This document shows, one piece after another, positions 1,362-6,405 of a DNA stretch of 64,000 bases. The notes under the pieces were generated by a model, which was given only the letters and a program-made list of their open reading frames with translations, was not told the DNA's origin and ran no database searches. A program made the translations under genes and the position numbers. Positions within the stretch are counted from its first letter, which is position 1; each line of letters opens with the position of its first letter. The DNA lies in NCBI GenBank assembly GCA_031520405.1, contig GCA_031520405.1_4842.1; one strand, 5' to 3'. Origin of the DNA: a phage.

Positions 1362-1828
1362 TATGTCCTCTCCTTCTTCACGAGGTTATCATAGGCGTTC
1401 TTCAACATGGCATCCGACCAGCTAGTCCAATTGAACACATTAATCGGACTCACTCCTTTGTATAGTTCTAATATGGTTGGCGAAAGTTTGATTTCTATCG
1501 AGTTGTGGTCTTCACCTTCCACCACCGTTAACCAGAACAAATCTTTATCCAACAATTTGTGAGCAACGTGTACGTACTTGGATGCAGTTTCATCACACCA
1601 TTGTTCCAGGATTGAATACAATTCCCTTTCTATCCTCATGCGGGTCTCTGAAGAATTCGGGGTTCCGTAATAAGGGGAATTGGAATGATATGCCGTGGCT
1701 TCCTGTAAGCGTGACACCAATGGTATAGCAAAGCCAGCCTGGAACATATATTTCCAATGACTTTCAAGGGTGGAGATGATCTCGTCTCTTTCGACCTGCG
1801 ATAAGCGCATTATGGTTTCCTCAGCCAT
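1361..1828 (-). CDS. hypothetical protein
   Basis: 155-aa ORF, tightly packed with neighbours. Confidence 0.4.
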
Positions 1829-2151
1829 TCTAAAATCGGCACGTTCACAAACCCTTTATGCCAACGATGCGGTTTGTGACCTCTATTATGTTCGAGCAAA
1901 CACGTGTCTGGTGGGACACTGAAGTGGATGCCGTCGATGTCGTAGTAATGTCCGTCAATCAGAGTATACACATGACCTTCGATCTGGCTGTAATGGATCT
2001 CTGCTTGAGGATACACATGCTTCAGAACCAGAGCAACCTGATAGCACTTTCCGTTCTTCCCAACATACTCAACATCCACCTGTTGTGGGAAGACGTCTTT
2101 GATAAGATTTATCAATCTCGTGATGTCATTTACAACAACTGAACGTTTCAT
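1810..2151 (-). CDS. hypothetical protein
   Basis: 113-aa ORF. Confidence 0.35.
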   Translation of the reverse strand: MKRSVVVNDITRLINLIKDVFPQQVDVEYVGKNGKCYQVALVLKHVYPQAEIHYSQIEGHVYTLIDGHYYDIDGIHFSVPPDTCLLEHNRGHKPHRWHKGFVNVPILEWLRKP

Positions 2152-2153
2152 CT

Positions 2154-2816
2154 CTATGATAACTCATGGCGATGTCGAACACACGCAGGGCAATCACAAT
2201 TCTTTTTCAAAATTGGCAATTCACACCATGTCATTAAGTCATGTATTGGGGACATGTGATGATAGAACCAAGATTTCTTGAGACTAATCAATGGATATAA
2301 AATTTCAATAGGTCTTTCCCCGTCTCTGGTCATCATGTTGTACCCTTCAATGACTTTATTAAAGGCGGGTATCCAGTGTATTGCGTCATCGCCGTTAACA
2401 TATGCCAATATATACGTGGAAGGCAAGCTCCTGCCTTTAAATTGCGTGTTTAATAACCATATCGGGGCTTGTGCTAAACAAGAGCGAAAACCACCGTTCG
2501 GGACGTTGATGCTACTGATAGGTTCTTGATGATGTGTCCAACGATACATGAGAAGTGGGGCATTTTTATTAATCCAGTTGTGTATTTTATTCCTCGCCCA
2601 ATTTTCGCGCTTAGATTTAAATTTATTATTTTCGAGGTGGCAATACACAGTATGAACTGAATATCCTTTCGATAACAACCAAATCAACATGTATGTGCTA
2701 TCCACCCCACCAGACCAGAACAACGTCACTTCTTGATTATTCTCCGGTAATGGAGCATCCCCTTGAAGAACACGGTATACAAAATCACAATCAGATACTG
2801 AGACAACAATTTCCAT
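2154..2816 (-). CDS. QueC-like PP-loop ATPase (7-cyano-7-deazaguanine synthase family)
   Basis: N-terminal PP-loop FWSGGVDST; C-terminal Cys cluster CDCPACVRHR resembling QueC zinc site; about 220 aa. Confidence 0.55.
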   Translation of the reverse strand: MEIVVSVSDCDFVYRVLQGDAPLPENNQEVTLFWSGGVDSTYMLIWLLSKGYSVHTVYCHLENNKFKSKRENWARNKIHNWINKNAPLLMYRWTHHQEPISSINVPNGGFRSCLAQAPIWLLNTQFKGRSLPSTYILAYVNGDDAIHWIPAFNKVIEGYNMMTRDGERPIEILYPLISLKKSWFYHHMSPIHDLMTWCELPILKKNCDCPACVRHRHELS

Positions 2817-3127
2817 TAAAATATTCCTCTTAAAGAATCATTTATCCTGCGCAATTCGTTTTCCACTTTTATCTTCATATTTTTATCGTCGTTCACGAAA
2901 ATCATTTTATCTAAATCTTCGCCATTAATCTTTGTATAAAAATAAATGTCATGCTCAAAGAAAATCGTTTTTCCAACAGAACGCATGGCAAAGAACGTTG
3001 CGATAGTTCTTGATAAAGGTTTGAATTTAATGGCATTGAAACGCAAAGCCTGATAGAGAGGTTTTAATGTTCCTAAGCGAATACAATGCTGGATAATTTC
3101 TTGCTCTTTCATTTTGTTGTGCGCCAT
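2816..3127 (-). CDS. hypothetical protein
   Basis: track ORF 2816..3283 trimmed to internal ATG (MAHNK...) that lies downstream of a terminator and a TATAAT box. Confidence 0.35.
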   Translation of the reverse strand: MAHNKMKEQEIIQHCIRLGTLKPLYQALRFNAIKFKPLSRTIATFFAMRSVGKTIFFEHDIYFYTKINGEDLDKMIFVNDDKNMKIKVENELRRINDSLRGIF

Positions 3128-3159
3128 AAAGATATGATGGTACAATGATAATACATTAT

Positions 3160-3188
3160 ACAAATAGAAAAGCCCCGAAAGGGGCTTA
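3160..3188 (-). terminator. rho-independent terminator
   Basis: hairpin agcccc-gaaa-ggggct followed by U-tract on minus strand. Confidence 0.55.
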
Positions 3189-3476
3189 TTTGTCTTCAGA
3201 TTCGTACAAACGCCAATTGCCGATGCTAAACCATTCCCCCACATTATTTGAATATCTGGTTGTTCGGACTCCTCCGACTTCATACGCCCATTTGAAGAAT
3301 TTCCATTTGGACGATAAAGAAGGACATTCGCTTCCGGATTTCAAAGAACACGCTGTGAGCCAACGCGTAATACCGAGAGCCTGAAAAATCGGATGGATAA
3401 ATGAAGAATACAATATCCAAAGCGTTATGGTAACAAAAACAATGGTCGTGATCACCCCGACAATTTGAAAGAACAT
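3186..3476 (-). CDS. small membrane protein
   Basis: hydrophobic N-terminal segment; terminator hairpin directly downstream. Confidence 0.4.
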   Translation of the reverse strand: MFFQIVGVITTIVFVTITLWILYSSFIHPIFQALGITRWLTACSLKSGSECPSLSSKWKFFKWAYEVGGVRTTRYSNNVGEWFSIGNWRLYESEDK

Positions 3477-6045: not shown

Positions 6046-6405
6046 CTAATCTATCCATATTTCAGGTTCGGGGATATCAACCATCTCCACCGTTTGATTC
6101 TTTAATTCGTGGAAACAGTCACCAAGGAATTGTAATTTACCATCAGTCAAGAACAAATGACAACGACTCGCCGGATCAGAATGATTCACCAACAGACTAG
6201 GAGTGAAAGTCGGTGATTCGAGATCGTGATTCCATTGCCATATTGGGCCAGGCATTTGCCCTGAAATGCGATAAGGATGAAGCATATTACATCCAGGACA
6301 ATGAAAATATATGGAACCACCCATTGATAATAATTTTGGAGTCAATAATTTTGACATATCACGCCTCCACTTCTTCATCAGGATTGTATGGGTGTAATTC
6401 TCCAA
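6046..6405 (-). CDS. hypothetical protein with CxxC motif
   Basis: 119-aa ORF, HCPGC motif. Confidence 0.35.
   Translation of the reverse strand: MENYTHTILMKKWRRDMSKLLTPKLLSMGGSIYFHCPGCNMLHPYRISGQMPGPIWQWNHDLESPTFTPSLLVNHSDPASRCHLFLTDGKLQFLGDCFHELKNQTVEMVDIPEPEIWID

Follow-up and report, generated by a model that had tools for sequence, protein, structure and literature searches.

The characterised zinc-knuckle members of the QueC superfamily use their PP-loop to convert a carboxylate into an acyl-adenylate, which is resolved by ammonia in QueC, by the N-terminal glycine of a protein in Cap9 and probably likewise in QatC. Canonical QueC carries the signature SGGxDS, YxQxHxxE, VPxRN, YPDC, K165 and C-x8-CxxCxxC, and each of the substitutions Y35A, R99A, Y131A and Y189A abolishes the function of the E. 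coli enzyme (Libby et al. 2026, PMC13329287). For Cap9, defence is lost in the S18A/S23A mutant, and in the Cap9-CdnD structure 7-deazaguanine is held by hydrogen bonds to D117 and by stacking on Y115 and R86. Cap9 Y115 and D117 correspond to Y129 and D131 of B. subtilis QueC and Cap9 R86 equals QueC R99; QueC D133 binds N1/N2 of the base. Here, we analyzed a gene in a 64,000-nucleotide stretch of phage DNA (contig GCA_031520405.1_4842.1 of assembly GCA_031520405.1; hereafter, the window) that a first-pass annotation had described as an orphan QueC-like PP-loop enzyme. Judged by its sequence, the encoded protein is a member of the QueC superfamily in a clade of its own (PHROG_1550), nearest to QueC and Cap9 and not to TilS. 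This clade is probably a phage sister family, paralogous to QueC, and not a preQ0 synthase.

The gene is located as follows.

2154..2816, minus strand: coding sequence of the QueC-superfamily PP-loop protein (PHROG_1550 type), 220 amino acids (aa), with an ATG start and the stop codon counted; based on the list of open reading frames (ORFs), the PHROG_1550 match (E = 1.4e-81) and the orthologue gp140 of phage Det7

The two motifs on which the first-pass annotation had drawn are indeed present, namely the PP-loop FWSGGVDST, whose codons at 2694-2720 were read by hand, and the C-terminal CDCPACVRHR, in which C207-D-C209-P-A-C212 is encoded at 2181-2198. Its parallel with QueC is accurate, because E. 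coli MG1655 QueC has VVFSGGQDSTT ... GCGHCAACNLR. In PHROGs, residues 1-219 match phrog_1550 ('QueC-like queuosine biosynthesis'), and this full-length match, together with 193 phage records and 1,430 profile clusters, confirms a QueC-like gene far beyond chance.

Single-sequence searches against Pfam, NCBIfam and PDB matched the PP-loop only and did not tell the families apart. The Pfam score for QueC (PF06508) was 23.9 bits versus a cut-off of 22, over residues 33-76 (the PP-loop) only, followed by ThiI (22.2) and MnmA (17.2). With NCBIfam, the QueC equivalog TIGR00364 gave 18.4 bits versus a cut-off of 150.3, and TilS TIGR02432 gave 14.6 bits versus 93.6, with the match limited to the PP-loop. 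Profiles built from homologues were therefore used. An Ackermannviridae profile made from 14 sequences can be aligned to B. subtilis QueC (3bl5, E = 4e-4) from one end to the other, and in 1.84 billion representative proteins it detects 1,430 clusters (counted at 50% identity) at E ≤1e-3 and 638 at E ≤1e-10, nearly all of them about 200-250 aa and full-length. The broader PHROG_1550-type family was represented by an alignment of 61 sequences, which is the basis of its profile and of all column counts below. This profile matches QueC 3bl5 (4.7e-10), Cap9 9nto_B (1.8e-8, full-length) and QueC 2pg3 (6.7e-8), and the other PP-loop families begin at 1.8e-3, with the PP-loop only. Comparison of the family with E. 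coli QueC alone by hhalign gives a probability of 95.9% and E = 2.7e-9. Moreover, all 61 members match Pfam QueC, weakly (best E = 1e-11), and the PADLOC 'QueC' model (CBASS type IV) gives full-length matches to family members between 1e-9 and 3e-14. E. coli QueC is significant against the family hidden Markov model (HMM) only at the PP-loop and at the C-terminal PL..K/Cys4 blocks. The AlphaFold2 model consists of a single 220-aa domain with a predicted local distance difference test (pLDDT) score of 80.6, falling to 51-55 in the Cys4 region.

Thus, the family profile search proposed in the first-pass annotation places the protein in the QueC superfamily and not with TilS or another PP-loop family. 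The likeness to QueC holds at the superfamily level but not as canonical QueC, for which the equivalog score is far too low and the pocket residues described below are lost. The weaker alternative raised in that annotation, a TilS-like role on the CAU tRNA, fared no better, with the profiles grouping the protein with QueC and Cap9 and the TilS models matching the PP-loop only. In its general form, this alternative posits a base modifier of the TilS/ThiI/MnmA/TtuA type that adenylates a pyrimidine carbonyl in phage tRNA (e.g., the CAU tRNA) or DNA for amination or thiolation. We regard such an enzyme as quite unlikely, given that in the profile searches these families lie over six orders of magnitude behind QueC and Cap9. 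The NCBIfam models of TilS, MnmA and ThiI stay at the PP-loop and far under their cut-offs, and the PDB match to MesJ has E = 0.023 over 22 residues. In addition, RNA-binding domains, whether THUMP, TilS C-terminal or another, are absent from the single-domain 220-aa protein, as is the Fe-S cysteine pattern of TtuA/NcsA, and no extra nucleoside beyond 5-NeOmdU has been reported in ViI DNA (PMC5889632).

To compare individual residues, the family was mapped onto Cap9 numbering via the HMMER alignment. Five elements of the gene are relevant here.

2694..2720, minus strand: PP-loop F33-W-S-G-G-V-D-S-T41 (SGGxDS, the ATP pyrophosphate-binding motif), with G37, D39 and S40 in 61/61 sequences; aligned to Cap9 S18/D22/S23

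2604..2630, minus strand: N63-N64-x2-K67-x3-E71 block past strand beta-2, in place of QueC YxQxHxxE

2373..2402, minus strand: Y139-V-N-G-D143-D144-A-I-H-W148 block, in place of QueC YPDCxxxF; family consensus YVMNDDAIS[YF]

2274..2276, minus strand: K181, the lysine of the FPLxKxxK block, in 61/61 sequences; equals E. coli QueC K165

2181..2225, minus strand: Cys4 zinc-knuckle motif C198-E199-x7-C207-D-C209-P-A-C212, with the four Cys in 61/61 and E199 in 59/61 sequences

The Cys4 motif, a predicted zinc knuckle, aligns to QueC C188/C197/C200/C203 and to CE..CGSCASC of Cap9. Its Kuttervirus form, C198-x8-C207-x-C209-xx-C212, is one residue shorter than both the family CE..CGxCxxC and the QueC C-x8-CxxCxxC, and the position of QueC Y189 is E199 in 59 of the 61 sequences, matching the 'CE' of Cap9. 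The remaining QueC blocks are remodelled. [IL]61-x-N63-N64-x2-K67-x2-R70-E71 replaces the YxQxHxxE of the QueC Q37/H39 region, where the terminal Glu alone is kept: E71 is invariant (61/61) and aligns to Cap9 E52, N63 (58/61) aligns to Cap9 Q46, N64 is present in 57/61, and K67 in 48/61, the other 13 having Q. At the YPDC block, Y139 and D143 are found in all 61 sequences, D143 being the equivalent of Cap9 D117 and QueC D133. Position 141, which is aligned to the stacking Tyr (Cap9 Y115), is M in 40 sequences, N in six and L in six, and the position of the YPDC Cys is D in 56 of the 61. The arginine of QueC VPxRN is not conserved either (aligned position 111 is N in 17 sequences, R in ten, or another residue); R111 is kept within Ackermannviridae only, and the conserved residue of the aligned segment is Q116. 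According to this alignment, the residues that stack on 7-deazaguanine, both the aromatic one and the arginine, are lost in the PHROG_1550-type family.

These observations bear on the possibility that the protein is a functional QueC (preQ0/ADG synthase) feeding 7-deazaguanine modification of phage DNA or tRNA, with its partners supplied by the host or encoded elsewhere. The superfamily membership and the retention of the PP-loop, the zinc motif and the equivalents of K165 and D133 are consistent with it. Salmonella and E. coli hosts make 7-carboxy-7-deazaguanine (CDG; E. coli queC was found), from which canonical QueC forms ADG and preQ0 by means of two ATP and ammonia. Asn-GUU is among the phage tRNAs, Det7 has Tyr-GUA in addition, and both are queuosine substrates. 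Even so, we consider a functional QueC very unlikely. The equivalog threshold is missed widely (18.4 versus 150.3 bits), and the four residues whose change to Ala inactivates E. coli QueC (Y35, R99, Y131 and Y189) are not conserved. The host has its own QueC, neither DpdA/TGT for base insertion nor folE, queD or queE is seen in the window or in Det7, ViI-like DNA is without a modified dG peak (PMC5889632), and true QueC coexists with the paralogue in two metagenomic phages (loci L019 and L046).

Both of these unrelated phages encode a canonical QueC in the gp32/UvsX/FEN/DnaB module that also contains the PHROG_1550-type paralogue, at a distance of about 7 kb from it.

L019:2423-3220: canonical QueC of a metagenomic phage, Pfam QueC 172 bits, full-length; detected by the QueC domain of phage 9g Gat-QueC

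L046:3428-4231: canonical QueC of a second metagenomic phage, likewise full-length at 172 bits with Pfam QueC and detected by the same phage 9g domain

The canonical enzyme and the paralogue are thus maintained side by side, and redundancy between them is unlikely. No folE, queD, queE or dpdA was seen in the 20-kb loci L019 and L046. Of note, the ribonucleotide reductase (L019:165-1907) and the DnaB-like helicase (L019:6573-7904) of the first locus both have intein-splicing domain matches.

The first-pass annotation had seen no FolE, QueD, QueE or DpdA in the window, and this absence was upheld. The phage 9g DpdA, FolE, QueD and QueE proteins served as tblastn queries against the window, the complete Det7 genome and every family locus; in the window and in Det7, no match fell below E = 4. 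The genome-wide scan for these partners that it had recommended was run on the complete relative Det7 and found none by tblastn or by annotation, the RefSeq record (215 features) listing no folE, queD, queE or dpdA/TGT. The 7-deazaguanine DNA or tRNA modification role that it had offered did not hold up, with no partner genes in the window or Det7 and the QueC substrate-binding residues gone; such a role is not supported. A passage in Hutinet et al. 2019 lists the QueC-like protein of Kuttervirus ECML-4 as a singleton and sets it aside as probably of another subfamily. Liquid chromatography-mass spectrometry of ViI, CBA120, CBA6 and 1.255.O DNA revealed the four canonical nucleosides and one fifth major peak, 5-NeOmdU (PMC5889632). 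The 5-NeOmdU pathway has been reconstituted from the kinases gp67/gp243, the transferase gp247 and the decarboxylase gp226, with no PP-loop enzyme (PMC8989533). A role of the QueC-like protein in 5-NeOmdU synthesis was considered and rejected, as the in vitro pathway is complete without it and needs no carboxylate activation.

On balance, we favour the view that the PHROG_1550-type protein is not a preQ0 synthase but a single-domain, catalytically competent PP-loop ATP pyrophosphatase, probably an amide ligase that adenylates its substrate with ATP. The PP-loop and ATP would adenylate a carboxylate, or possibly a carbonyl oxygen, and an amine nucleophile would then resolve the acyl-adenylate to give an amide. 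Since the catalytic scaffold is fully conserved, the chemistry of the characterised superfamily members is the most economical inference; since the substrate pocket is remodelled, the acyl substrate would be other than CDG, or CDG would be bound in a novel manner, in line with the argument made for QatC. The target would most probably be a nucleotide, DNA or a replication-associated component, rather than tRNA queuosine, and the protein would have no part in the known 5-NeOmdU hypermodification of thymidine.

The distribution and gene neighbourhoods of the family were also examined. By megablast, the window region originates from a Kuttervirus (Ackermannviridae), with 98-99.5% identity to ST-W77, Det7, PhiSH19, S117 and SFP10, and the QueC-like protein is 99.5-100% identical to the proteins of Salmonella phages S117 and S118. 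By tblastn, it is found in 196 phage records, with a coverage of at least 80% in 193; the Klebsiella and Serratia members are about 55% identical to it and the phiMAM1-like phages about 30%. Vibrio phage YC (Ackermannviridae) also encodes it. The gene behaves as a core gene of Ackermannviridae. Outside this group, the family occurs in the Pseudomonas jumbo phages PA1C and PS119XW, the Ralstonia/Burkholderia jumbo phages RSL2 and FLC6/8/9, Pseudomonas phage Noxifer, and Vibrio phages GR28A and 207E48.1. In Vibrio phage YC, Pseudomonas phage PS119XW and Ralstonia phage RSL2, nearly all annotated neighbours of the gene are hypothetical proteins, which gave no lead. One member (L003, 10001-10687) lies in a 4.2-Mb bacterial chromosome (GCA_942493195.1), flanked by insertion sequence elements and large TPR/WD40 proteins; since it has no phage neighbours there, the clade is not strictly limited to recognisable phage contigs.

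For the neighbourhood survey, ORFs were called in 79 IMG/VR loci of 20 kb and three contigs, and the neighbours were clustered by all-against-all BLASTP; dereplication at 70% identity left 53 lineages. In about 20 of these, the order is SNF2-type helicase, a 120-aa protein, the QueC-like gene, DNA polymerase, Nudix hydrolase and further unassigned ORFs. In other lineages the QueC-like gene adjoins a gp32-like single-stranded DNA-binding protein (SSB), a RecA/UvsX homologue, a FEN-type nuclease, a DnaB helicase, a RecJ-like DHH protein or an SbcCD-like protein, and in one locus it lies near thymidylate synthase, dihydrofolate reductase (DHFR) and DNA ligase. No universal partner gene was found around the 53 dereplicated loci, synteny being lineage-specific only, and no fused domain was recognised in the C-terminal extensions of longer family members (up to 462 aa). 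The shared setting of the family is replication/recombination modules in several unrelated phage lineages.

That some loci neighbour thymidylate synthase, DHFR, ribonucleotide reductase, dCTP deaminase or Nudix genes would also suit an amidotransferase that acts on a small molecule or nucleotide and supports the nucleotide supply of the phage, comparable to the GMP, NAD and asparagine synthetases, with which the protein shares the general N-type ATP pyrophosphatase fold. This is highly improbable, as neither a glutaminase partner nor a glutaminase domain was found, QueC and Cap9 outscore GMP synthetase, NadE and AsnB by far, and the zinc knuckle is confined to the QueC branch.

Several points weigh against the proposed amide ligase and its separation from QueC. 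HMMER and hhalign differ by about five residues at the YPDC region, so the claims of residue loss depend on the register chosen; the HMMER register was preferred because it reproduces the correspondence of DCxxxF and DDAIS[YF]. The AlphaFold2 model is of moderate predicted quality and poor at the Cys4 region. The chemistry proposed for the clade is carried over from its homologues alone. With D143, E71 and the zinc knuckle kept, a guanine-like or deazaguanine ligand from the host QueD/QueE pathway may still bind, and nucleoside analysis at the level of high-performance liquid chromatography is blind to a modification well below 1%. Finally, the location in replication modules is only suggestive, because phage 9g places true deazaguanine genes beside its polymerase.

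A further idea is a protein modifier similar to Cap9 or QatC. After adenylating a small acid (CDG or other), it would couple this acid to the N-terminal amine of a protein of the phage or the host, and so control a replication factor or interfere with the immunity of the host. The idea draws on the 120-aa protein, whose gene directly precedes the QueC-like gene in about 20 loci (e.g., L038:9642-10001, L065:9639-9998 and L077:7434-7796) and which has no Pfam or PHROG match. In many loci its gene overlaps the QueC-like start by 4-8 nucleotides (translationally coupled), and its N-terminus reads MG[SN]xYxW..NPF.DFL in 14 of 21 lineages and MA in three of the 21. Met-Gly starts are the acceptors for QueC-family enzymes in QatB (MGTS) and in the CD-NTases of type IV CBASS (MGGS), so this MG[SN] start, together with the Cap9-like 'CE' motif, suggests a virus-encoded system for protein N-terminal conjugation.

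Several observations make a protein modifier of this kind rather unlikely for the gene in the window. The 120-aa protein has no homologue in the window or the whole of Det7 (HMM search, best E = 1.2) and is missing from some phages within its own syntenic lineage; in the window, the two flanking proteins both lack an MG start; and no TGT/Cap10-like or CD-NTase gene is seen in the Det7 annotation, nor DpdA/TGT by tblastn of the window and Det7. Furthermore, the QueC-like gene is core and not accessory, which is unusual for counter-defence genes. Comparison of the 120-aa protein by hhalign with two nearby Kuttervirus clusters (the family of a 96-aa ORF and a phosphatase) gave a probability of 0.1%; the two directly flanking genes are outside those clusters and are covered by the HMM search of the window and Det7. 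The Det7 proteins annotated with a Met-Gly start, including the gp32-like SSB (MGN...), were listed and not used as evidence, being too unspecific. In its boldest and rather doubtful form, the PHROG_1550 clade would be a phage counterpart of Cap9/QatC that joins a small acid (host CDG or another acyl group) to the N-terminus of a protein of the replication apparatus. The 120-aa MG[SN] protein would then act as acceptor in one large lineage, and Kuttervirus would use another. If true, it would be the first case in which a nucleobase- or acyl-protein N-terminal conjugation system serves viruses instead of acting against them.

In the window, the QueC-like gene has the following immediate neighbours.

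2816..3283, minus strand: ORF adjoining the QueC-like gene upstream, 155 aa, PHROG_9302 match; its stop overlaps the QueC-like start (TAATG)

1810..2151, minus strand: Phage_YunG-like gene downstream of the QueC-like gene (PF24591, E = 7.8e-44; PHROG_4814); its start lies 2 nucleotides past the QueC-like stop

The start/stop overlap upstream and the 2-nucleotide gap downstream place the QueC-like gene in a compact minus-strand operon, with the YunG-like gene on one side and the genes for DexA exonuclease and topoisomerase II on the other. The 155-aa ORF is probably over-extended, since its PHROG_9302 match is confined to residues 58-155 and its orthologue in Det7, gp141, has an annotated length of 98 aa; the real start probably lies inside the ORF and gives 98 aa as well. 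A small ORF farther away (6046-6405, minus strand) reads ...SMGGSIYFHCPGC... and contains an internal Met-Gly-Gly-Ser followed by a zinc-ribbon-like CPGC. This is the same tetrapeptide as the acceptor motif of CBASS CD-NTases, yet it lies away from the annotated N-terminus, and the start in Det7 (gp149) is earlier. The window also has a tRNA cluster at 37698-39018 (minus strand) with Ser(GCU), Asn(GUU) and Met(CAU), and Det7 additionally has Tyr(GUA) and one pseudo-tRNA. The coincidence of Asn and Tyr tRNAs, which are queuosine substrates, with a QueC-like annotation is recorded here without connecting them to the gene.

Hundreds of phage genomes are acquiring the label 'QueC-like queuosine biosynthesis', which invites the false inference of 7-deazaguanine in Ackermannviridae and several jumbo phages. 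By the present evidence, PHROG_1550 would be a separate large branch of the QueC superfamily, and for this phage with 5-NeOmdU a second DNA modification, of a purine, is no longer suggested. That the protein probably belongs to another subfamily has already been remarked in passing in Hutinet et al. 2019; what is added here is a large phage clade with its own signature, a residue-level case against a preQ0 synthase, the coexistence with true QueC and the association with replication modules. Since two bacterial defence systems already repurpose the QueC fold for protein modification, a third repurposing, on the side of the virus, would be of real interest, and the link of the PHROG_1550 protein to this protein-modifying branch is plausible but unproven.

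Comparison with the known systems summarizes these relationships. The phage protein resembles canonical QueC in its Rossmann-like PP-loop fold of about 220 aa, SGGxDS, the C-terminal Cys4 of the same spacing logic, the PL..K lysine and the pocket Asp. It differs in having NGDD in Kuttervirus (MNDD in the family) for YPDC, E199 for Y189 and NNxxK for YxQxHxxE, and in its lack of linkage to queD, queE, folE or dpdA. Gat-QueC of phage 9g (gp06) is likewise a phage QueC-superfamily domain beside replication genes. However, tblastn with its QueC domain leaves the Kuttervirus protein undetected even at E = 10, whereas the canonical QueC of L019 and L046 is detected, and phage 9g has DpdA, FolE, QueD and QueE alongside, of which Kuttervirus has none.

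QatC of QatABCD is also a QueC-family enzyme with remodelled CDG-recognition residues (its Y/D pair is T/T), and because QatC lacks the Cap9 recognition residues as well, their loss in the phage family leaves room for QatC-like behaviour. A small MG[SN] protein is encoded upstream as a partner of the gene in one phage lineage, as QatB has MGTS. Unlike the 220-aa phage protein, QatC has about 400 aa, N- and C-terminal extensions and a C-x19-CGxC zinc variant; the PADLOC QatC model gives no match, the QueC-type model being the only one from PADLOC to do so, and there is no QatA or QatD. Cap9 of type IV CBASS (PDB 9nto_B) differs in its setting, as the phage family is without CD-NTase, Cap10 or Cap11 neighbours and lies in lytic phage replication modules, not in a bacterial defence operon. 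Moreover, of the CDG/NDG recognition residues Y115, D117 and R86, the family conserves the D117 equivalent alone. Cap9 is nevertheless the best structural and a near-best sequence match, a minimal single-domain QueC fold that shares with the phage family the 'CE' at the first zinc cysteine and the equivalents of D117 and E52.

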